DNA of 64,000 bases from Staphylococcus phage PhiSepi-HH3: sequence record MT880872.1, one strand, 5' to 3'. Made by a program: the position numbers and the translations under genes. The notes beneath the pieces were generated by a model. It had not been told where the DNA came from, did not search any database, and saw only the letters and a list, made by a program, of their open reading frames with translations. Shown here in pieces: positions 5,213 through 50,559 of the stretch (position 1 is the stretch's first letter; each line of letters starts with the position of its first letter).

Positions 5213-7004
5213 GTTTGTTAACTCTAATAGTCCTTATAAAAATACTATTGATTTATTCAAACTAAGACGTAATAAACGTAATACTAAGTCTCGATCAGAG
5301 CAAACAATGGAAAACATTGCTGTTTGGATATCTTTTTATAGAGAGAACCCACATCGTTTTGTTCTAGACTTTATGAATATTAACCTACGTCCGTTCCAAT
5401 GTGTATTACTTTGGGCAATGATCCATCATCAATATTTCATGTTCTTAGCGTCAAGGGGACTTGGTAAGACTTTCTTATCTGCTGTATATTGTTTAACTCG
5501 TTGTATTTTATATCCGGGTACTAAGATAATTATTACAGCTCCTACCAAGTCTCAAGGTATCAATGTATTAGAAAAAATTGAAAACGAATTACTCTCCCCT
5601 CTTATTCACAGAGAAATTGAGTCTATAAATACTGGAAACCAGAAACCTATGATTGCTTTTCATAATGGTAGCTGGATAAGAGTAGTAGCTTCTAATGATA
5701 ATGCTCGTGGTCATCGTGCTAACCTATTATTAGTCGATGAGTTCGTTAAAGTTGATGAAGATTTAATAGATACAGTATTCAAGAAAATGTTAACCTCTCA
5801 ACGTGAACCAGCATTCTTACATAAGGCTAAATATAAAAATTACCCTCGTGAAGAAAATACTCAAATGTATTTATCATCTGCATGGATGAAATCACACTGG
5901 GCTTATGACTCAATGCGTTCGTTTACCAGACAAATGCTCAAGAAGAAAAGTGAAGATGACTTAAAGTCATTTGTTTGTCATATCCCCTACTATACAGGTG
6001 TTATGGAAAAACTTTATTCTCATAAACAAATGAAAGCCGAAGCTCAAGCAGAAGGTTTCAATAAGATGAAATTTGCTATGGAGATGGAAGCAGTTTGGTG
6101 GGGAGAAACTGAGTCAGCTTTCTTCAATTTTAATACGATTGACTTTAATAGAAAGCTTAGTCAAGCATTCTATCCTAAAGAAGTTTTAGTTCAAGCAGAT
6201 ATAAATAACCCAATCAAAGAGCCTAAAGAGAAACGTCTCTTAGCAGTCGATGTTGCCCGAATGGGTGGTAACTCAAATGACGCTTCTGTGTTCAGTTTGA
6301 TTAGATTATTACCTAAGGGAAAACAACAATATGAACGTCAACTTAACTACATGGAGGATATGGAAGGTATTGACTTCCAAACTCAAGCAATAAGAATTAG
6401 ACAATTATACGATGATTTTGATTGTGATTATATTGTACTTGACTTAAAAAATGTTGGTGCTGGTATCTTAGATAACTTGAGAATACCTTTAACCGATATT
6501 GATCGTGGTGTTGAATATGAGCCACTGAACGTTTCTAATGATGATGATTTAGCTTCTACTTGTAAATATCCAGAAGCACCAAGAGTTATTCACGTTATTA
6601 ACGCTACTAATGAACGTAACATGGAAATGGCTAACTTATTAGCCGATAACTTCATGCGAGGCAAATTTAGATTGTTAATTCGTGAAGAACAAGCTGAAGA
6701 GTTATTTAGACAAGATAAGAAACTTAAATACCTCAATCTCAACCCTTCTACTCAAGCTCTACTTAAATATCCATATCGACAAACTGAATTATTTATCAGT
6801 GAGGTCATGAACTTAGAGCAAGTAAACATGGATAATGGAGCATTTAAACTCGTTACTTCTGGCAGAGCACGTAAGGATAGATACTCTTCTGTTTCTTATG
6901 GAAATCAATTCGCTACTATTCTTGAAAGAGAATTAGCTCGTCACACAAGAAACATTGATTTCAAACGTTTTGGATCAGTCAGAAAACCTAAAAATATTAT
7001 ATAG
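5205..7004 (+). CDS. terminase large subunit
   Basis: The Walker A-like motif ASRGLGKTF and the LLLVDEF Walker B/DE motif are present. The size and its position before the portal gene fit. The start was moved to the ATG at 5205, which has an AGGTG ribosome-binding site; the track ORF starts at 5196. Confidence 0.7.
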   Translation: MSKFVNSNSPYKNTIDLFKLRRNKRNTKSRSEQTMENIAVWISFYRENPHRFVLDFMNINLRPFQCVLLWAMIHHQYFMFLASRGLGKTFLSAVYCLTRCILYPGTKIIITAPTKSQGINVLEKIENELLSPLIHREIESINTGNQKPMIAFHNGSWIRVVASNDNARGHRANLLLVDEFVKVDEDLIDTVFKKMLTSQREPAFLHKAKYKNYPREENTQMYLSSAWMKSHWAYDSMRSFTRQMLKKKSEDDLKSFVCHIPYYTGVMEKLYSHKQMKAEAQAEGFNKMKFAMEMEAVWWGETESAFFNFNTIDFNRKLSQAFYPKEVLVQADINNPIKEPKEKRLLAVDVARMGGNSNDASVFSLIRLLPKGKQQYERQLNYMEDMEGIDFQTQAIRIRQLYDDFDCDYIVLDLKNVGAGILDNLRIPLTDIDRGVEYEPLNVSNDDDLASTCKYPEAPRVIHVINATNERNMEMANLLADNFMRGKFRLLIREEQAEELFRQDKKLKYLNLNPSTQALLKYPYRQTELFISEVMNLEQVNMDNGAFKLVTSGRARKDRYSSVSYGNQFATILERELARHTRNIDFKRFGSVRKPKNII

Positions 7005-41114: not shown

Positions 41115-43508
41115 ATGAGAAGAAATTTAATTAATAATTATCGTTTCTTAGAATTCCCACAAGAGACTTCTATTGAAATTAAACAAGGTGACTTTACTCC
41201 TATCTCTGTTAAATTGGACTCTACTGAGATGATTAAAGATGATGGTAAAGACGCAAAAGTTATTTTAATCAACACTGATAATGAAAAAGTATTTGAAACT
41301 AGCGTACCAGCGAAAAATAGAATTATTGAGTTTGTTATCAATAAGAACTTACCTAAAGGAAGATACTTTTTAGAAATCGTTTATAATCAAATGAAGTTTC
41401 CTTCTAGAGATTATAAAACTATCATTATTAATGGATCAGCTTCATTAGGTAGTTTAAAAGAGATTAATATCATTAGTTCAGATGATATTAAAAATAGATT
41501 TATTTCTGAAGCTAAAAAAGAATTATCAGCGGATATTGATCAACTAGTTAGTGAGAAACTTAATAAGTATGTCATTGAAAATCAAGAAGATTTAAAAGGT
41601 CAATCGATATCTATTGCTAACCACGAATTCGATGAAAAAGGTAATCTAAATATTACTTTTAGCGATCAAACATTTATTCAGATACCAAAAGGAAAAGATG
41701 GCCACAACGGTGAAGATGGTCGAGATGGCTTGAACGGAAGAGATGGTCAATCTGTAACCACTATCACTGAACGTGGAATTAGTAATAATAGCAGTGGTAT
41801 CTATGTTCGTACATACAAAGTTGATCATGAAGGTATTAAACAAGATTTAATCAGTGAAACTTTCGTGTCTGATGGAAAAGATGGTAAAGATGGAACGTCA
41901 GTTGAAATCGACCATACTGAAGAAATTGACAACGACCTCAAAATATACTTTACAAATGGCAAATCTTTATTCTTACCAAAGACAAAAGTTGTAGAAACTA
42001 ATACCTCAGCCAGCACAGAAATCTCACAACTTAAAGATTTAGTAGGTGTGTTTATTGGTGATAGTATTACTGAAGTTAACTTACGAACAGAAAAGAACTA
42101 CCATCAATTTATTGCTGATCGTACTGGGCTTAAAAATATTAACTTAGGTCATAGTGGTACAGGTTATCAAGATAGAAAAAATGCTTTCACTGAAATAAAA
42201 GAGGCACCCGATTTCATCACCGTGTTCTTGGGAACAAATGACTATGGTTTAGTTGGTGGAAAAACTAGAGAGTTAGGAACTGCGAAAGAACATAAAGCTG
42301 GAACAGTTGCGGGTAGTATTTATTATACATTATTACAACTTTCAAACTCATTCCCTACTACGCCTATTGGTGTAATGACTCCTATTCCTAGAGCTGAATG
42401 TAACCCGTTCAAAGAAGTTGCTAACTCTAAGGGATATACTTTAGGCCAATTAACTGAAGTAATTAAAGAATTGGCTAGTTCATTCTCATTCCCTGTTTTA
42501 GATTTGTATAATGAAAGTAATCTAAGAGTTTGGAATGAAACTGTTAATAAGACTTTCTTTAGTCTTTCAAATGGTTCATACGATGGTTTACACCCTAATG
42601 CTAAAGGTCATGAGTATTTATCTTATATGATTGAAAGATTTATTGAAGATAAATTAGTTGTGGGTACACGATTTGATTACGAACATGTTGATACTACTCC
42701 AACAAGTCTAGGTAATGATGTCTTTAAAAAAGCTATTAAACCAGAAGGTATGTTTTGGAATACAACCCAAAGCCTCATTATTAATGTTACTGCTAGTGAC
42801 ATTGATTTAGATAAGTTTAAATTGCTGAAAATAAAATATAAAAACTATAAAATTATTGATCCTAGTGGTATATTAAGTGGTTCTCCTTATTGGTACACTT
42901 TACCTAACTACGCTGATAAAGATAAGTTTAATAGAACTTCAGATGTCACTGAGTTTGTTAAAGGTTTTGAAGTTATGGATATTACTGAAAGTCGTGGTAA
43001 TGAATATATGCCAGATTATGTAGAATTCATATACACTCTCAAAACTAATACAGATGTTGTAGCGGATATTAATAAAGATTACGTCTTGAAGTCTGCTGCA
43101 CAACCGACTACACCTTCTACTTCAACACCTACTTCTCCAACAACAAATACAAAAGAGAAAGTAACACCAGTTGATAATGGTGATGGAACATTTACCGCTA
43201 CTATCACTCCAACTAAGATTTCTTGGAAGCAAGATCAAAGCTTCATGATTAACACAGATGGAGAACAATTAGATTTAACTGGTAAGCAAGTTAAAAAAGT
43301 AGAGTCTGGTGATTATTCAATTCTAAACCCAAATACAACTGCTTCTAACTACTTCTTCTGGTATTCTGTTCCTACTTCTACTGAAGGTACTATGTTCAAT
43401 AAAACACCAGACATTAATAAATTCGTTGCTGGCTTAACTGTTGATAAAACTGAAGCTGATGGAAGAATAGTATATAAACTTGTACCAGTAAAAATTACAT
43501 ACAAATAA
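41115..43508 (+). CDS. SGNH/GDSL-family hydrolase with collagen-like Gly-X-Y repeats, a Thr/Pro linker and two C-terminal repeat modules
   Basis: SGNH blocks: GDSITE (block I, catalytic Ser), LGHSGTGY (block II), FLGTNDYG (block III), DGLHPNAKGH (block V, DxxH). The collagen-like run is GKDGHNGEDGRDGLNGRDGQ (7 G-X-Y triplets), followed later by DGKDGKDG. The linker reads PTTPSTSTPTSPTTNT. Two modules of about 45 aa, each with a W-Y-T/S-x-P core, follow it. Confidence 0.6.
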   Translation: MRRNLINNYRFLEFPQETSIEIKQGDFTPISVKLDSTEMIKDDGKDAKVILINTDNEKVFETSVPAKNRIIEFVINKNLPKGRYFLEIVYNQMKFPSRDYKTIIINGSASLGSLKEINIISSDDIKNRFISEAKKELSADIDQLVSEKLNKYVIENQEDLKGQSISIANHEFDEKGNLNITFSDQTFIQIPKGKDGHNGEDGRDGLNGRDGQSVTTITERGISNNSSGIYVRTYKVDHEGIKQDLISETFVSDGKDGKDGTSVEIDHTEEIDNDLKIYFTNGKSLFLPKTKVVETNTSASTEISQLKDLVGVFIGDSITEVNLRTEKNYHQFIADRTGLKNINLGHSGTGYQDRKNAFTEIKEAPDFITVFLGTNDYGLVGGKTRELGTAKEHKAGTVAGSIYYTLLQLSNSFPTTPIGVMTPIPRAECNPFKEVANSKGYTLGQLTEVIKELASSFSFPVLDLYNESNLRVWNETVNKTFFSLSNGSYDGLHPNAKGHEYLSYMIERFIEDKLVVGTRFDYEHVDTTPTSLGNDVFKKAIKPEGMFWNTTQSLIINVTASDIDLDKFKLLKIKYKNYKIIDPSGILSGSPYWYTLPNYADKDKFNRTSDVTEFVKGFEVMDITESRGNEYMPDYVEFIYTLKTNTDVVADINKDYVLKSAAQPTTPSTSTPTSPTTNTKEKVTPVDNGDGTFTATITPTKISWKQDQSFMINTDGEQLDLTGKQVKKVESGDYSILNPNTTASNYFFWYSVPTSTEGTMFNKTPDINKFVAGLTVDKTEADGRIVYKLVPVKITYK

Positions 43509-43523
43509 CATATAAAAATCTCA

Positions 43524-43553
43524 AGAACTAGTTAACGCTAGTTCTTTTTTTTA
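43524..43553 (+). terminator. rho-independent terminator between the SGNH hydrolase gene and the endolysin gene
   Basis: The stem is agaactag-ttaacg-ctagttct. A T9 run follows. Confidence 0.6.
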
Positions 43554-43584
43554 TTACATAAATTTAACTAAGGAGTGTTGTTCT

Positions 43585-45087
43585 TTGAAAACTCAAAAAC
43601 AAGTTGCTGAAAGATTACGTGCTTACGTTAACGGTACTGTTGATAGTCCATATCGAGTTAGAGATTGGACTCATTATGATGATGATTTTGGAACAATGGA
43701 ACCGGGCTGTATTGATGTTGATCGTAGCTTCCATGCTCAATGTATGGATCTCGTAATCGACTATTGTTTATGGATATCTGATAATCAATTTAGAATTCGT
43801 GGTAATGCAAAACAAGCTATCGACAACCCTCTTCCAAAAGGCTGGAAAATTATTCGTAATGAAAGAGCCACAGTGCCGAAACAGGGCTGGATAGGTGTTA
43901 ATACAAGCACATATTATGGTCATATTTGGCTCGTTGATAAAGGTGCTACTCAAATGACTATGCCTGTTATTGAGCAAAACTGGAATTCGTTAGCGAACTT
44001 AAAACCAAAACGTAGACTTGATTACTACTATGGTTGTACTCACTTTATCGTTCCGCCAATTAGTTCAAATAATGCTATTGTGAGAGCTGCTAAGAACGTT
44101 TTACCTAGTCCTAAACCTATGAAAGTATTACTTGTAGCTGGACATGGTAAAGGTGCTTATTCAAACGATCCTGGTGTAGTAAATACTGAATTAGATATTT
44201 GTGAAAGAGACTTTGTTAGACAAAAAATCGTTCCTAATGTTGCTAAGTATCTTAAACAAGCAGAAGTAAATGTTCAGTTGTATGGTGGTTCTACTATGAA
44301 CCAAGACATGTACCAAGACACTAGATATGGTGTTAATCTTGGAGATACTAAGAGATATGGAATGTACTGGGCTGCTCGACAAGGTTTCGATCAAATTGTT
44401 GAATTCCATTTGGACGCAGCTAGTCCACAAGCTTCTGGTGGTCATGTAATTATTGATAATAACGTATATCAAGATAAGATTGATGAAAGACTTCATAAAG
44501 TTATTGATAAATACGTTGGTACAATTCGAGGTATAGACAAGCGTGATAACTTATTGAATGCTAACGTATCTGCCGACCTAAACCAAAATTATAGATTAGT
44601 TGAATTAGGTTTCATTACTAATAAAACTGATGTAAGAAATATCGAGAGACATCTTGAAGCTTTCACTAAAGAAATGGCTGAAGCTATTGTTGGTAATGTT
44701 ATCGGTAATAACTTAGGTTCTCAAGATATAAAGCCTTCTACTAAAAAAGGTACTAAATCTAAACCTTCTAAGAAAAAACCTGAACCTCAACAAATTGAGT
44801 GGAAGTGGTCTGGCACTTTCTACCCTAATACATCGATCAAAGTTAGAAGAAACTGGGGGCTTAACGGTGAAGAAGTTCCTAGAAAATTCTGGCTTAATGG
44901 AGAAAAAGACTGGGTATATATCCATTCAGTTATCAAAGATACTAAGAATAAATTATGGTGGGCTAAGATGACTTATCCTCAAAACAAGGAAATTAAATAC
45001 TTCTATTGTGCTTTAGGTAAAATCACTGATAAAGAAGCCAAAATTAAAAAAGAAAAAGAATTATATGGTAAAATTAAATGGAAGTAA
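43585..45087 (+). CDS. endolysin: CHAP + N-acetylmuramoyl-L-alanine amidase (Amidase_3) + SH3b-like cell-wall-binding domain
   Basis: TTG start with the ribosome-binding site TAAGGAGTG. The CHAP Cys/His blocks are FHAQCMDLV and YYGHIWLV. The Amidase_3 blocks are KVLLVAGHGKG...E...EFHLDA...GGHVII...LVELGFITN. A Lys-rich linker leads to a C-terminal beta-rich domain. Confidence 0.75.
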   Translation: MKTQKQVAERLRAYVNGTVDSPYRVRDWTHYDDDFGTMEPGCIDVDRSFHAQCMDLVIDYCLWISDNQFRIRGNAKQAIDNPLPKGWKIIRNERATVPKQGWIGVNTSTYYGHIWLVDKGATQMTMPVIEQNWNSLANLKPKRRLDYYYGCTHFIVPPISSNNAIVRAAKNVLPSPKPMKVLLVAGHGKGAYSNDPGVVNTELDICERDFVRQKIVPNVAKYLKQAEVNVQLYGGSTMNQDMYQDTRYGVNLGDTKRYGMYWAARQGFDQIVEFHLDAASPQASGGHVIIDNNVYQDKIDERLHKVIDKYVGTIRGIDKRDNLLNANVSADLNQNYRLVELGFITNKTDVRNIERHLEAFTKEMAEAIVGNVIGNNLGSQDIKPSTKKGTKSKPSKKKPEPQQIEWKWSGTFYPNTSIKVRRNWGLNGEEVPRKFWLNGEKDWVYIHSVIKDTKNKLWWAKMTYPQNKEIKYFYCALGKITDKEAKIKKEKELYGKIKWK

Positions 45088-45110
45088 TAAATTAGAGTTA
45101 TTATAATTTA

Positions 45111-45151
45111 TCCCCTCTGACTATTTTAAATAGTTGGAGGGGAATTTTTTT
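45111..45151 (+). terminator. rho-independent terminator ending the phage late/lysis transcription unit
   Basis: The stem is cccctc...gagggg. A T7 run follows. Confidence 0.7.
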
Positions 45152-45162
45152 GTGCATATATC

Positions 45163-45363
45163 TTATACTAGCTTTAAATTTATTGTTTGTGCCATCAAAC
45201 ACTTAGTTACTATCGTACTTGTTTGTAAATCAGTTAGTCTTATAGTATAAGAACCTTCTTTAGTTCTTATAACGATCATTACATCTTCAATTTTTTCCGT
45301 CTCGATATCTGGAATAATTAGTCCTTGTGCAGCTTTACCAATAAAATTTACGTTCATCTCCAT
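45163..45363 (-). CDS. small protein P1 (66 aa), paralogue of P2
   Basis: Ribosome-binding site GGGAGGA. It shares the core DV(M/V)xV(I/L)RxxEEG/EGSxTI with the 58-aa ORF at 45743-45919. Confidence 0.4.
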   Translation of the reverse strand: MEMNVNFIGKAAQGLIIPDIETEKIEDVMIVIRTKEGSYTIRLTDLQTSTIVTKCLMAQTINLKLV

Positions 45364-45742
45364 TCAAACTTTGTCCTCCCAATTATGCTATAAACGTAAT
45401 AAAAATGCGAAACTATTTGTAACTATGTAAACTCTTTTTGATAATTAGTTGATAATTCTTAAATAAATAATAAGAACTCGTACAAGAAAAATAAATAAGT
45501 TATTTAACTTATTCTAAAGCAAAATGTTTATATAATTACTAATGTCATTAATTCGTTTCCCAATTATAATTACTCTTATTTATATTTCTTAAAATAATAA
45601 TACAAAAATAAATATATCACGATTATAATATTTATAGTATAAGTAATATTTACATAAAATTTATAAAAGTATCTTAAATGTAGCAAAAGTATTTCTTTTA
45701 TTCAAAATTTTTATATTTTTTAAACATTTCTTTTTCAAGCAT

Positions 45743-45919
45743 TTATATTTCTTTAAATTGTATATTAAAATCTTTTGTACTTTTTATAACTATTGTTCTC
45801 CCCTCTTCATTTGCTCTAAGAACTGTAACTACGTCAAAAATATTTTCATTAGAAAATTGTAGCAACTCCTCTTCTGTGAAATCTCTCTCACCTTCAATTA
45901 CAATTCGATATTTTTTCAT
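45743..45919 (-). CDS. small protein P2 (58 aa; MKKYRIVIEGERDFTEEELLQFSNENIFDVVTVLRANEEGRTIVIKSTKDFNIQFKEI), not listed in the ORF track
   Basis: ATG with the ribosome-binding site AAAGGATGATG. It lies downstream of a near-consensus sigma-A promoter. It is a paralogue of P1. Confidence 0.4.
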   Translation of the reverse strand: MKKYRIVIEGERDFTEEELLQFSNENIFDVVTVLRANEEGRTIVIKSTKDFNIQFKEI

Positions 45920-45971
45920 AGTACATCATCCTTTCGCAAAATTTAAATATGAGAACGTTTGTTCGGTATTT

Positions 45972-46000
45972 ATATTAAGTTATTATTAGAGTGATGTCAA
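45972..46000 (-). promoter_or_regulatory. near-consensus sigma-A promoter on the minus strand (TTGACA, 17-nt spacer, TAATAT) reading into P2 and P1
   Basis: Read on the minus strand: ttgaca-tcactctaataataact-taatat. Confidence 0.5.
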
Positions 46001-46057
46001 CAAAAACAAAAAAGCTCAATGGTAAATAACCAAAGAGCATACTAGATATTTGTACTA

Positions 46058-47704
46058 CTATGACTTATCTTCCACCAAATATTCAACTGGAATTTTACTA
46101 AGTATTAAATCTTTTGACAACTGTTCATCGTATTTAATAATAATCAGTTTCACATCATTTTGATCACATAGTTGTTGCTTACGCTTATCTCTCACCTGTT
46201 GTTTCTTTAGACTTTCTTCTCCTCCCCAATGTTCAACTGGCTTATAGTGTTGAACACCATTATATTCAAAACCAATTTTCAATTCCGGTACATAAATATC
46301 TATTTCTAAACCTTCAAGAAAGTTTGGTCTACAATGACGTTCGCATTCATAATTTTCAAAGATATCTTCAACAATTTTAAACATCATAGTTTCAGATATC
46401 CAACCTTCTCCTATTTTAGCTACACCATATTCTTCTCTTAGAATATTTTCAGCTTCTTTTCCATAGATATCGTTATCTAAGTCGTTTTCTATTTGAACTT
46501 GATCAATATACCAACCATGATACTTTCTAAATTTACTATCATTACTTGAGTATATGCGATTAGGAGTTGTTTTATTACATCTAAAGCATATATTATCTTT
46601 GAATTGAATGTCATCAACTATGTTAGTATTATCATCATTTAGATATGCTTTAATAACTGGAGGTAAATATACTTTTACATTTAGTTTATTTACTTTTAAT
46701 TTATGTAAAGCTTTTTTAGTACAACTACACATATATGGCTCTTGATCGAATGAGTCTCTAAATGCAAAGAATTTTGTTTCATGTTCTAATGGATAATAAG
46801 TTATATATGCTCTATTGTCATCATTTAATACAAAATCAAAACTATTTCCATAGCTATAATTTAATATTCTCTTAATTCTATTTTCGGCATGTGATACAAA
46901 TTCTCTATATTCAATTAAATATTTTTGGTATAGTTTCTCTTCTAAATAAATTTCTTTATTTTTCCAATTCTTAATTAAAAAGAATATGTTTTCAATGTCA
47001 TCTCTATGTTCAAGATATTCCATATCGCTAGTTACTTTTATACTATATTTATTATCTTCAAATTCAAAGTTATCGAAACGCTTCATTAAATTGATTGCAG
47101 TCTCGAAATACTTCGATTTACTTTTAGATATTGTAATTCTTAATAAATCTTTTTCTTTATTCAATTCGTCTAATTCATCTATGTTAGGTTTGTATTGATT
47201 AGGGTTATCTAACAAAAGTCTGTCTAATGCTCCATAATATTTACCATTTATCTCAACTTCCTCAAAACGATCATTCAAAGGATGTAGCTCTGGTCTATTA
47301 TCTACAAGAACCTCTTCAATTATATTATGGATATGATTTTGAGTATCTCTGCCTCTCTCAATGATATTAATAATTTCTTTAGAGTCCTTTATAGTTCCAA
47401 TACTGATATAATTTGTGAAACTTTTATTGTTGTCACCATAAGTTATTCTAATAGGCTTATTTCCTAATGTTTCATCTAATTCTATTTGAATAACATCTTT
47501 AAAGGGAATTTTATATGCGAAATCTTCTACTTGATTTACCATATAAATTGAATTAATTGATAAATAAAATGAACAGTATATATTTCTGTATGTGCCATCG
47601 AAGGTATACTCGAAGTTACAAACAGTTTTATAATAAATTTCAACATTGCCAAACTTTTTTTCAAGATATTCATCGTTCATTTTTAAATCAGAATAAAAGT
47701 CCAT
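46058..47704 (-). CDS. 548-aa protein with a C-terminal Vsr/DUF559-like PD-(D/E)xK endonuclease domain and a novel N-terminal region of about 400 aa that contains a Cys cluster
   Basis: Ribosome-binding site AGGAGAAATAGG. The C-terminus (EGWISETMMFKIVEDIF...RPNFLEGLEIDIYVPELKIGFEYNGVQHY...VRDKRKQQL...VKLIIIKYDE) matches the DUF559 pattern of D, a hydrophobic residue, P-E-x-K and then I/L-E-x-D/N-G-x-Q-H. Cysteines occur at CSCTKK...CFRCNK. Confidence 0.55.
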   Translation of the reverse strand: MDFYSDLKMNDEYLEKKFGNVEIYYKTVCNFEYTFDGTYRNIYCSFYLSINSIYMVNQVEDFAYKIPFKDVIQIELDETLGNKPIRITYGDNNKSFTNYISIGTIKDSKEIINIIERGRDTQNHIHNIIEEVLVDNRPELHPLNDRFEEVEINGKYYGALDRLLLDNPNQYKPNIDELDELNKEKDLLRITISKSKSKYFETAINLMKRFDNFEFEDNKYSIKVTSDMEYLEHRDDIENIFFLIKNWKNKEIYLEEKLYQKYLIEYREFVSHAENRIKRILNYSYGNSFDFVLNDDNRAYITYYPLEHETKFFAFRDSFDQEPYMCSCTKKALHKLKVNKLNVKVYLPPVIKAYLNDDNTNIVDDIQFKDNICFRCNKTTPNRIYSSNDSKFRKYHGWYIDQVQIENDLDNDIYGKEAENILREEYGVAKIGEGWISETMMFKIVEDIFENYECERHCRPNFLEGLEIDIYVPELKIGFEYNGVQHYKPVEHWGGEESLKKQQVRDKRKQQLCDQNDVKLIIIKYDEQLSKDLILSKIPVEYLVEDKS

Positions 47705-47846
47705 TCCTATTTCTCCTAATTTATTAATTTAATTATCTTATATTTTACAATACTTTTAATAATAATAAATACAAAAAATAACCCCTTGATTAAGAAATCA
47801 AAGAGTTATTTTGGAGTTTAGATTTTACGAATATGATACTTATAAA

Positions 47847-48452
47847 TTATTTAGAATTAGAAGTACGTCTAAATGCTAATAATGAACCAGCTGCTAATAA
47901 TACTGAAGCGATGATTGTTGCTAAACCAGAGTTAGATTGTTCGCCTGTTTCTGGTAAAGCTTTTGTTGTTTGAGCTTCTTTAGTTTGAGTTGATTGTGTA
48001 TTGTTTTCTTGAGTAGAAACATCGTTATCAGTTGTAGCAGTAGTAGTGTTGTTATTTGTTGCTGCTTGATTATTGTCAGTACTTTGTGTATTGTTTGGTG
48101 CGTCAATTGTTAATACATTGTTTGCGTCTCTAGGAGTCTGAGCTTCAATACGTCCATCTTTATAAACTTTTGCAGCACCTACACCGTTGTCTTTTTCACC
48201 AGAAAAAATAACAGTATAATAGTCACCATTGTCTTTTACTCCATTGTCTTTATCAGTAACGCCACCACCATGTCCTCCAATTGATACAGAACCCGCTTCA
48301 GTATATTTTGAACCAATAGCATTTTTAGCATAATCTCTAACATTTGAGTCATTTACATAATCAGCTGCATGTGCATTATGTGTAGCTCCTACACCTGTAA
48401 ATAATAATGCTCCCGCTAATGTAGTTGTTGCTAAAACTTTAGATTTTTTCAT
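47847..48452 (-). CDS. LPXTG (LPETG) cell-wall-anchored surface protein with a signal peptide and a Thr/Asn/Gln-rich stalk
   Basis: The start was reset to MKKSKVLATTTLAG..., which has the ribosome-binding site GGGAGGAAAATAAAA. The motif LPETG is followed by a hydrophobic segment and RRTSNSK, the sortase sorting signal. The track ORF extends spuriously upstream. Confidence 0.7.
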   Translation of the reverse strand: MKKSKVLATTTLAGALLFTGVGATHNAHAADYVNDSNVRDYAKNAIGSKYTEAGSVSIGGHGGGVTDKDNGVKDNGDYYTVIFSGEKDNGVGAAKVYKDGRIEAQTPRDANNVLTIDAPNNTQSTDNNQAATNNNTTTATTDNDVSTQENNTQSTQTKEAQTTKALPETGEQSNSGLATIIASVLLAAGSLLAFRRTSNSK

Positions 48453-48603
48453 TTTTATTTTCCTCCCAAAAAATAATATGTAATCACGGTTTAAATATTC
48501 GACACGTGTATATCTAATGTTAAACATCAGAATGGACATATAATGTCCTTGTCTAAACAATTTAGATTTATTTTAATTGTCCAATGTAACTCAATGAGAA
48601 TAA

Positions 48604-48646
48604 AAGAAACTCTTTGATCGCTATTTTTTGATCAAAGAGTTTTTAT
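48604..48646. terminator. bidirectional rho-independent terminator
   Basis: The stem is aaactctttgatc...gatcaaagagttt, with an A-run on one side and a T-run on the other. Confidence 0.6.
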
Positions 48647-48757
48647 CATACTCAAATTATTTAAAAATCTAATTTCAATCAATTTAGAAAAATACTTGTA
48701 TTCTTTGTTATAACGGGGATAGGACAACTTTTGGTACTTGATTATATTTCGACTTAA

Positions 48758-49069
48758 TTAAGTACAGTTCCACCAAGTTCCAGTCGCGCATCCTCCAGCT
48801 AATACTATCCCTATTCCAAAAATGAAAGATCCCAAAATAGTTCCTATAACTGGAAATGTTTCTGCTGGAACCTCAATAATATTTAAGTGCTTTAGAATAA
48901 GTAAACCAATACTTTGGACTGTAATAGCAATAAGCAATGCATAAAACATTTTGTTACTCTTCTGAACGTACATATCTCTAAATCCACCAGCTAAACAAAA
49001 TCTTGTTCTCTGCATTACAAATCCTAGCAATATGCCAACGACTAGTCCGCTTATAATTGTCCACACCAT
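48758..49069 (-). CDS. YeeE/YedE-family (DUF395) membrane protein, short form of 103 aa; possibly partial
   Basis: The N-terminal signature of the family is present: GxxxGxxFGxxxQRxRFCxxGGFRD. The C-terminal LAGGCATG loop is present. Confidence 0.45.
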   Translation of the reverse strand: MVWTIISGLVVGILLGFVMQRTRFCLAGGFRDMYVQKSNKMFYALLIAITVQSIGLLILKHLNIIEVPAETFPVIGTILGSFIFGIGIVLAGGCATGTWWNCT

Positions 49070-49155
49070 TTTATCACCTTTTTCCGATATAAATACTAAG
49101 GTATTATAGTAAAAAGGACCATATTTTGCAAATTCTTAATTTTCTTTATTATGTT

Positions 49156-49446
49156 TTAATATAAATATTTTGTGAGTTTGTTTAAGTCACTCTTAGATAA
49201 GTTACTAAATTTATACCACTCCTGATCAGAATAATAAATAAACAATTTATTTCCTAATAACCCTTTAGATGTTCTATACCGCACAATGCTAGAGAGTTCG
49301 AATTGTATATTGAATGGATTATTGTTTTGACTATATGCCTTAAACTCCAACTTATTTTCATGTATTAACAATATACCGGGAACTGTCATTATTCTGGGGA
49401 TATGTGATTTGAAATTACAATTTATTTCTTGAGTCATTTGTTTCAA
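49156..49446 (-). CDS. hypothetical small protein (96 aa)
   Basis: ORF between the yeeE-like gene and rex. Confidence 0.3.
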   Translation of the reverse strand: MKQMTQEINCNFKSHIPRIMTVPGILLIHENKLEFKAYSQNNNPFNIQFELSSIVRYRTSKGLLGNKLFIYYSDQEWYKFSNLSKSDLNKLTKYLY

Positions 49447-49577: not shown

Positions 49578-50213
49578 TTATTTACTATAATTTTTCATGA
49601 AGAACAATAATGATTGTAACTCTATACCAAAATCAATATGATGTACTTGGACATCTTGGGGCGTTTTAATTCGACGTGGCGTAAAGTTTAGTATACCTTT
49701 AACACCGGCTTTAACAAGTTCATCAGCTACTTGTTGTGCCACATTATCTGGTGTTGTTAAAATGACTACATCAATATCTTCTGATTCTAATGTCATTTTG
49801 ATATCATCGCTATGTTTTACCACAACGTCACCGATATTCTCACCTATAATATCTGGTCTAATATCAAAAGCTTCAGTAATTGTCATCTCATCATGTATTG
49901 AAAAGTTATATGTAAGTAATGCACGCCCTAAATTACCGATACCTATAATGGCAATTTTAATTTGATCGCTCTCACTTAATTCCGATTTAAAGAATTCAAG
50001 CATACTATCTATATTATATCCATATCCTTTTTTTCCTAATTCACCAAAGTATGAAAAGTCTCTTCTTATTGTAGCTGAATCAATTTGTAGTGCTTCACTT
50101 ATTGTTTTAGAATTAACACGATCTATACCTTTACCTTTCAAAATACTGACAAATCGGTAATATAAAGGTAGACGTTTTAACGTAGCGCGAGGAATTTTAA
50201 AATCATCTGGCAT
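49578..50213 (-). CDS. rex: redox-sensing transcriptional repressor Rex
   Basis: Translation begins [21 protein letters not shown]...[10 protein letters not shown], carrying the winged-helix and Rossmann fold. It closely matches staphylococcal Rex. The start was set at the Met 31 residues into the track ORF. Confidence 0.85.
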
Positions 50214-50559
50214 ATATCTAACCCCCTTTTTCGCGTATATTATGCATGTATCATTAAAATCAGTAAATGAGTTAAAACATATGTTGAATGTCATCTCATA
50301 ATACAAATAATTGTCTACAACGAATACTTAAACATTATACATTATTAATTTTTAAAAATAAATATCCTAGTTTCATGTGTTCTATGAATACTGTAGAATA
50401 GAAGTAATTGAGTTTAACATCATTTCAAGATAACGTACGCAATTTATTTTTCTATTTAAAATTCGATAATATAGAATTAACAAAAATTTAAATATTCAAA
50501 AACAAATACTTTATATATAGTTTAAACCTATTTCAAATACATAGAAAGGTGAGAATCGA

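Follow-up and report, generated by a model that had tools for sequence, protein, structure and literature searches.

Nucleases of the Vsr type have been described from more than one setting. In Escherichia coli, Vsr (PDB 1VSR, 1CW0) is a single domain of about 155 aa that is genetically coupled to dcm; it has a zinc site inside its catalytic domain as well as intercalating Trp residues. The I-Bth0305I or EDxHD family of homing endonucleases (PDB 3R3P; PMC3239194), which includes Hef-type phage enzymes, is phage-borne and bipartite, with the targeting region lying N-terminal to the nuclease. The active site of I-Bth0305I is made up of E170, D196, H213 and D222, along with an extra acidic residue at the position of Vsr F62 (PMC3239194). 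That a phage homing endonuclease can act in competition between phages has a precedent as well (PMC11620839). Here, a nuclease gene is described from a 64,000-nucleotide stretch of Staphylococcus phage PhiSepi-HH3 (MT880872.1), referred to as the window. The gene (46058..47704, minus strand) codes for a protein of 548 aa, is identical with gp067 of Staphylococcus phage SPbeta-like and gives a full-length match to phrog_27771. As judged from structure models, it probably encodes a stand-alone, metal-dependent DNA endonuclease. An earlier note on this DNA had taken the gene, along with two small ORFs downstream, for a candidate undescribed defence or exclusion system; it had not considered the homing endonuclease family, which is the nearest characterised relative.

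The nuclease domain was identified through fold comparison only. The full-length AlphaFold2 model (mean pLDDT 84) is built of four parts: first a beta-sandwich closed by a C-terminal helix (residues 1-120), then a linker modelled with low confidence, next the alpha/beta middle domain, and last a beta-rich Cys region together with the C-terminal domain. As the PH-like N-terminal domain swamped the Foldseek list of this model, a second model was made for residues 290-548. Residues 416-540 (46085..46459, minus) are modelled as an alpha-beta-beta-beta-alpha-beta domain with the Vsr-type restriction-endonuclease-like fold; lower down, the matches also include RAP domains, Bax1, Can2 and restriction enzymes. 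The catalytic domain, therefore, belongs to the known Vsr-fold superfamily. The earlier note had been correct in assigning a Vsr/DUF559-type nuclease fold to the long protein. Among the searches it had proposed, that with AlphaFold and Foldseek found the Vsr fold in the C-terminal domain, while the HMMER profile search gave no nuclease match.

In 75 diverse C-terminal domains, the residues E438, D469, E480, Y481, G483, Q485, H486, G494, G495, D506 and K509 are invariant. The spacing D-11-E-2-N-4-H, along with an RDxxK motif, parallels D51, F62, H64, H69 and D97 of Vsr. A weak hhalign alignment (E 0.017) also sets D506 opposite Vsr D97; the numbering of the Vsr sequence used for it fits the residues cited in PMC3239194. 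The invariant E438, D469, E480, H486 and D506 are the set that characterises the EDxHD enzymes, the correspondence with I-Bth0305I being drawn from the spacing and from this weak alignment. By sequence, the relationship is far more remote. A phmmer search and two profile hmmsearches against the PDB sequences gave no match even at E up to 10, and neither the full protein, nor its isolated sub-domains, nor 51 relatives had a significant match in Pfam, NCBIfam or PADLOC. In Pfam, nothing was found for the full protein at E up to 1, no DUF559, DUF2726 or Vsr among the 51 members at E up to 0.01, and no NUMOD or HTH in the full protein or the isolated sub-domains at E up to 10. The C-terminus also matches several families of the PHROGs database that are annotated as homing or HNH endonucleases.

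The N-terminal part had been treated in the earlier note as one region of about 400 aa; it is instead made up of a PH-like domain, a linker, a middle domain and a Cys module. In the Foldseek comparison of the full-length model with the PDB, the top 50 matches are all PH or PTB domains and all fall on residues 1-120 (47345..47704, minus), with a probability of 1.0, E about 5e-4 and a TM to the target of 0.5-0.66. The secondary structure of the model is likewise that of a PH-like domain, a seven-stranded beta-sandwich capped by a C-terminal helix. By sequence, this domain is an orphan. Residues 1-120 match no bPH family of Pfam, and at E up to 10 the isolated N-terminal fragment yields only an unrelated, marginal match to Cyclophil_like2 (E 0.053). 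Among 1.84e9 representative proteins, relatives of the N-terminal 185 residues were found in Staphylococcus only. The alpha/beta middle domain (residues ~186-290; 46835..47149, minus) is found again in a few Clostridia-type proteins and in phrog_16260/phrog_559. It is followed by the Cys-rich module (residues ~290-415; 46460..46834, minus), whose C326, C328, C373 and C376 probably form a zinc site, going by the pattern of cysteines. At least three Cys residues lie upstream of the nuclease in 66 of 72 family members; the CxxC pair (C373/C376) is the common element, and its partner ligands vary among the members. A strict CxC...CxxC motif was considered as a family-wide feature and was ruled out, as it fits only 22 of the 72.

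Between the CxC and CxxC pairs lies a hypervariable cassette (residues ~301-368; 46601..46804, minus). It occurs as two allelic types, only 40-50% identical to each other, among SPβ-like variants that share 88-99% identity elsewhere. The nucleotide identity of the cassette is 69%, against 94-95% in its flanks. The cassette has a dN of 0.34, a dS of 0.69 and a dN/dS of 0.50, whereas dN/dS is 0.06-0.23 in the flanks. Since dN and dS are both raised, a recombinational swap of a diverged cassette under relaxed or diversifying constraint is indicated. Such a pattern is expected of a specificity-determining element, and the cassette may be a candidate for one.

The gene as a whole is under purifying selection, its dN/dS of ~0.10 being similar to that of the endolysin gene. 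Wherever an SPβ-like element from S. aureus or one of several coagulase-negative staphylococci was examined and well assembled, the gene is intact; the error-prone assemblies L098 and L099 break it, as they do their other genes. No empty allele was seen, for each of the SPβ-like elements examined carries the gene. Upstream of it, by consensus match, are a promoter-like TTAAAA-16-GATAAT (47759-47732, minus) and an AGGAG ribosome-binding site (47717-47713, minus). Directly after the stop codon, there is a terminator-like hairpin (46038-46014) with a U-run (46002..46038 in all, minus; dG -14.6 kcal/mol, z -2.8). Another terminator-like hairpin (47775..47812, minus) separates the gene from its upstream neighbour, the surface-protein gene sasX/sesI. 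The gene is thus monocistronic and a constant part of staphylococcal SPβ-like phages beside attP.

Full-length relatives of the protein are found in Staphylococcus only. Those in SPβ-like elements are 82-91% identical, and those of S. petrasii, S. pragensis and allies are 46-49% identical. Relatives of residues ~301-538 or a shorter part are present at no fewer than 539 genome loci in Bacteria and Archaea, always with the nuclease at the C-terminus. Their N-terminal regions differ on this constant nuclease and may be PH-like, TerB_N or pentapeptide repeats. At least 459 loci on viral contigs mostly share the catalytic core, and one jumbo-phage contig has two copies. The distant chromosomal relatives neighbour a Card1-like nuclease, RHS, iSTAND-trypsin, DUF1016, MmeI- and XamI-type restriction-modification, Hhe, CARF, SoFic, MkoA, PbeA, several PDC candidates and transposases. 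No conserved partner was found among 132 neighbouring ORFs at 33 loci; these fall into 114 Pfam families, none of which has a recurrence above 3. The view of the earlier note that a nuclease protein with a variable, non-catalytic front end sits in accessory DNA beside the attachment site was supported.

In S. petrasii, a 541-aa homologue lies among core genes, between an acyltransferase gene and a PTS gene, and is followed by a 65-aa membrane ORF and then a sasX-like LPXTG gene. The S. pragensis homologue is at the same syntenic site, without the LPXTG gene. The 65-aa ORF (L003 11821-12018; L014 9819-10016) has two predicted membrane helices, is conserved after the homologue in both species and is unrelated to the small ORFs of the phage. 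It was considered whether the S. petrasii locus is a decayed end of an SPβ-like prophage. This was not adopted, as its genes stand in a different order from those of the phage, with a swap between them, and the nucleotide homology is limited to the coding sequence. One SPβ-like prophage (L101 1-8300) is integrated beside the same tyrS-htrA-acyltransferase locus that holds the lone 541-aa homologue in S. petrasii (L003 9257-13061) and S. pragensis (L014 7231-10325). The shared locus could be a sign of capture in the past or of an alternative attachment site.

The most likely reading, to which we assign a rough probability of 0.45, is that the gene encodes a single-gene, sequence-targeted exclusion nuclease acting like a domesticated homing endonuclease. 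According to this proposal, the protein would be made in the lysogen, where the Cys module and the middle domain would bind DNA and the hypervariable cassette would set the target specificity. The bound DNA would then be cut by the Vsr-type active site, in which D469, E480 and D506 are predicted to hold the metal and H486 to act as the general base. In this way, the incoming DNA of a competitor phage or mobile element would be cleaved, and the protein would work, with one gene, as a domesticated homing-endonuclease or restriction-like exclusion nuclease. The PH-like domain may regulate or localise the nuclease. The reading draws support from the invariant active-site residues, the single-gene status, the purifying selection and constancy of the gene, and the candidate specificity cassette. 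It is also favoured by the position of the gene near attP next to the optional cargo gene sasX, the swapping of N-terminal domains over a constant nuclease, the conflict-type neighbours of the distant relatives and the precedent in phage-phage competition (PMC11620839). A defence role is plausible.

Several points weigh against this proposal. The protein matches none of the 5027 PADLOC models; the PADLOC run, which the earlier note had also proposed (PADLOC-DB v2.0.0, systems up to 2023, E up to 1), gave no match for any of the three proteins of the locus. No immunity, methyltransferase or antitoxin partner was found to explain how self DNA is spared. The mapping onto Vsr residues consists of motif spacing and a single weak hhalign alignment (E 0.017). 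The association with defence neighbours is a list of matches, semi-quantitative and without a per-locus statistic against the background. Further, the closest characterised relative and many of the phage homologues are homing endonucleases, the homologues standing in typical homing-endonuclease gene positions. A paper on phage resistance in ST239 (PMC11599779) was considered as evidence and set aside, as its strain has two ~40-kb prophages only and φSPβ is not discussed.

The main rival takes the gene for a free-standing EDxHD homing endonuclease that is purely selfish. Such an enzyme would cut a site in related phage genomes that lack the gene, which would then be copied in by recombinational repair with benefit to neither phage nor host. 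In S. thermophilus phages, homologues of the catalytic domain are indeed found between TerS and TerL, and in a Clostridium phage one lies upstream of TerS. Another, flanked by NAD-salvage genes in Klebsiella phage Muenster, was annotated by its depositor as 'homing endonuclease EDxHD, HHpred 3R3P 97%'. The many viral-contig relatives, with two copies in one jumbo contig, and the bipartite build, which like that of I-Bth0305I has its targeting part at the N-terminus and its nuclease at the C-terminus, agree with this as well. So does the finding that the nuclease gene lies on one side of a sasX-like gene in one context and on the other side in another, and SPβ-like phages bear other homing elements in their nrd genes. 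In related SPβ-like phages, a LAGLIDADG-domain intein was seen in nrdE and an HNH ORF between nrdF and nrdE (L007 1-1886; L009 1-2556; L001 30680-31504).

Fixed selfish homing genes usually decay. The present gene, however, is under strong purifying selection (dN/dS about 0.10), has no empty allele in the SPβ-like elements examined and has been retained by two species at a syntenic place in the chromosome. It also lies outside any intron or intein, has no detected NUMOD or HTH motif, and is placed in the accessory region close to attP, away from the conserved genes for replication or structure. Moreover, the chromosomal relatives are in defence or variable islands. On these grounds, a purely selfish homing gene is the less likely explanation, albeit one with a sizeable share of the remaining probability.

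A second alternative is a three-component defence or toxin-antitoxin-like system, in which the nuclease has two small paralogous proteins of 58 aa and 66 aa as its partners, be they regulators, antitoxins or anti-defence factors. This was the module proposed by the earlier note, and the three minus-strand ORFs are placed as it had said: 548 aa (46058-47704), 58 aa (45743-45919) and 66 aa (45163-45363). The 58-aa ORF (gp066, phrog_23230) and the 66-aa ORF (gp065) are found in SPβ-like elements only, where the order 548-58-66 is constant. The 58-aa ORF is highly constrained, being 96.6% identical between SPβ-like lineages, with 5 synonymous changes to 1 nonsynonymous. The spacer of 380 bp between the two small ORFs (45364-45742) is 79% AT and about 76% identical between these lineages. 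The small proteins, which the note had called clearly homologous, show a weak local similarity of 9/20 identities in BLASTP (E 0.007). Their Smith-Waterman score was, however, reached in 246 of 20000 shuffles and their hhalign probability is 7%, so that paralogy is not significant.

The signals on the DNA also divide this supposed module. The 58-aa ORF has a promoter-like TTGACA-17-TAATAT of its own (46000-45972, minus), lying beyond the terminator-like hairpin of the nuclease gene. In two independent complete S. aureus genomes (L097 and L100, about 6526-6762), the 66-aa ORF has a 1-nt deletion in an A-run and is frameshifted after about residue 24, while its 549-aa and 58-aa neighbours are intact. 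Neither small ORF is present beside the chromosomal homologues of S. petrasii and S. pragensis or beside any of the distant relatives examined, and neither has a PADLOC or Pfam match. A conserved, co-transcribed partner, as is expected of multi-gene toxin-antitoxin or abortive-infection systems, was thus not found. Because hairpins flank the nuclease gene, the small ORFs are absent at its homologues and no neighbour recurs, the nuclease is taken to work alone. The 58-aa and 66-aa ORFs are small phage genes in their own right and not components of the nuclease, and a three-gene system is improbable.

Still less probable is a Vsr-like repair nickase for the T:G mismatches that arise from deaminated 5-methylcytosine, made by the phage's own C5 DNA methyltransferase. 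The SPβ-like phage does encode such a methyltransferase (hhaIM, gp089), and several type II methyltransferases neighbour the distant relatives. The phage methyltransferase is, however, about 17 kb away in another transcription unit, and none is found beside the chromosomal homologues. A protein of 548 aa with three extra domains also differs from Vsr of about 155 aa, E480 at the Vsr F62 position is the extra acidic residue that marks the EDxHD branch, and a hypervariable cassette is unexpected in a repair enzyme. Lastly, a catalytically inactive, RAP-like regulator that binds nucleic acid through a Vsr fold without cleavage is the most remote of these explanations, since the predicted catalytic residues are all invariant in the 75 diverse members and an inactivated fold is, therefore, unlikely.

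The surroundings of the gene were followed on both sides. In the window, the locus comes after an endolysin gene with CHAP, Amidase_3 and SH3b domains (43585-45087, plus), behind which a strong terminator-like hairpin (45111-45143, plus) forms the boundary. Over 45000-47900, the window has 100% identity with two phages: Staphylococcus phage SPbeta-like, a genome of 127.7 kb whose host is S. epidermidis 36-1 (KT429160/NC_029119), and SPbeta-like 2 of S. haemolyticus (MT955612). In these records, the three ORFs are gp065 (66 aa), gp066 (58 aa) and gp067 (548 aa), each annotated 'hypothetical protein'. Their sequence is, therefore, already in a published phage genome, where it was never interpreted; as a bare sequence, the locus is not undescribed. 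The reference phage has an IS3-family insertion between the SGNH tail protein and endolysin genes (NC_029119 71295-72432; L001 17310-18447). As the window is without it (compared at 43508-43585), the window is not the S. epidermidis 36-1 copy. The GC content is 0.21 in the spacer at 45250-46000, 0.24-0.30 over the long gene and 0.30-0.36 in the phage late region. Thus, the AT content of about 80% given in the earlier note holds for the spacer, but the long gene has 70-76% AT, against a background of 64-70%. An Rfam scan of 44900-49200 at E up to 1 found no RNA family in the AT-rich spacer.

On its other side, the nuclease gene is followed by an LPXTG surface-protein gene (47847..48452, minus), between it and attP. 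Because published sasX primers match there, at 48350-48374 with 0 mismatches and at 47921-47945 with 2, the gene is identified as sasX/sesI. It is an optional cargo, since the SPβ-like viral contig L185 (120 kb) passes from the nuclease gene to the serine recombinase without a copy of it; the order there is endolysin-66-58-548, with the recombinase 275 bp further on (L185 9474-12933). A functional linkage of sasX with the nuclease was also considered and ruled out, sasX being absent from S. pragensis and from this contig. On the circular phage map, gp068, the LPXTG gene, comes after gp067, and the very next gene is gp069, the integrase of the serine-recombinase type. These genes are co-oriented with the entire early arm, so that the locus is antiparallel to the late operon only and not, as had been stated, to all phage genes.

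Comparison with a contig that spans the circular junction places the boundary between prophage and chromosome near 48777. This lies in a truncated yeeE-like ORF (48758-49069, minus; Pfam Sulf_transp, E 3.5e-30) adjoining rex (49578-50306), in agreement with the published insertion of φSPβ into yeeE. The locus is, as proposed, at the prophage end, but the next gene is the phage-borne sasX/sesI and not a chromosomal one. Beside the att site, there is a chromosomal 96-aa ORF (49156-49446, minus) with a bacterial PH domain (bPH_3, E 3.3e-5). Kinship of this ORF with the PH-like N-terminus of the nuclease was ruled out, as no similarity is detectable.

The φSPβ-like prophage is of clinical importance, as it spreads sasX/sesI and aminoglycoside resistance in methicillin-resistant S. 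aureus (MRSA) ST239 and in coagulase-negative staphylococci. An active, conserved nuclease beside sasX could affect which phages and mobile elements the lysogens accept, and this bears on phage therapy and gene flow. The analysis also defines a widespread nuclease family that is unnamed in the current domain and defence databases and is structurally linked to the EDxHD homing endonucleases. Its compact, naturally swapped cassette may set DNA specificity, which is of interest for the domestication of selfish nucleases and for nuclease engineering. So far as the database and literature searches show, no earlier description exists of the PH-like/middle/Cys/Vsr-fold architecture, of how broad the unannotated family is, or of its swappable cassette. 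A bolder proposal can be made, though it is more doubtful than probable. It holds that the Cys-module and Vsr-fold family (at least 539 loci, with at least 459 viral relatives of the core) are new single-gene, sequence-targeted nucleases against mobile elements. They would have arisen from EDxHD enzymes and carry a swappable specificity cassette, and the prophage copy with its PH-like sensor would shield epidemic sasX-positive MRSA and coagulase-negative staphylococcal lysogens from competing phages.

When set against the known systems, gp067 stands closest to the EDxHD family. It shares with it the same E/D/E/H/D set, including the acidic residue at the Vsr F62 position, the bipartite build with an N-terminal targeting region and the carriage by a phage. 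Unlike those enzymes, it is not in an intron or intein, nor between conserved genes with presence/absence polymorphism. In place of an N-terminal NUMOD or HTH, it has a PH-like domain, a middle domain and a Cys module, and with 548 aa it is twice the size of I-Bth0305I (266 aa). It is also fixed, under purifying selection that extends to the syntenic chromosomal site and with no empty allele seen, and its relationship by sequence is too remote for HMMER. Vsr proper is a small single domain linked to the C5 methyltransferase dcm, whereas gp067 has several domains and no adjacent methyltransferase, with E480 in place of F62 and N482 in place of H64. From the DUF559/DUF2726-type Vsr-like domains (e.g. 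NGO0050, PDB 3HRL), it differs in that neither gp067, nor its isolated domain, nor the 51 members match DUF559, DUF2726 or Vsr of Pfam. Finally, gp067 matches none of the known defence models in PADLOC, yet it resembles the single-gene nuclease defence proteins with variable sensors in its constant C-terminal nuclease, its swapped N-termini, its sporadic distribution and its want of a conserved partner, and, like them, it is located in prophage accessory regions and in defence or variable islands.

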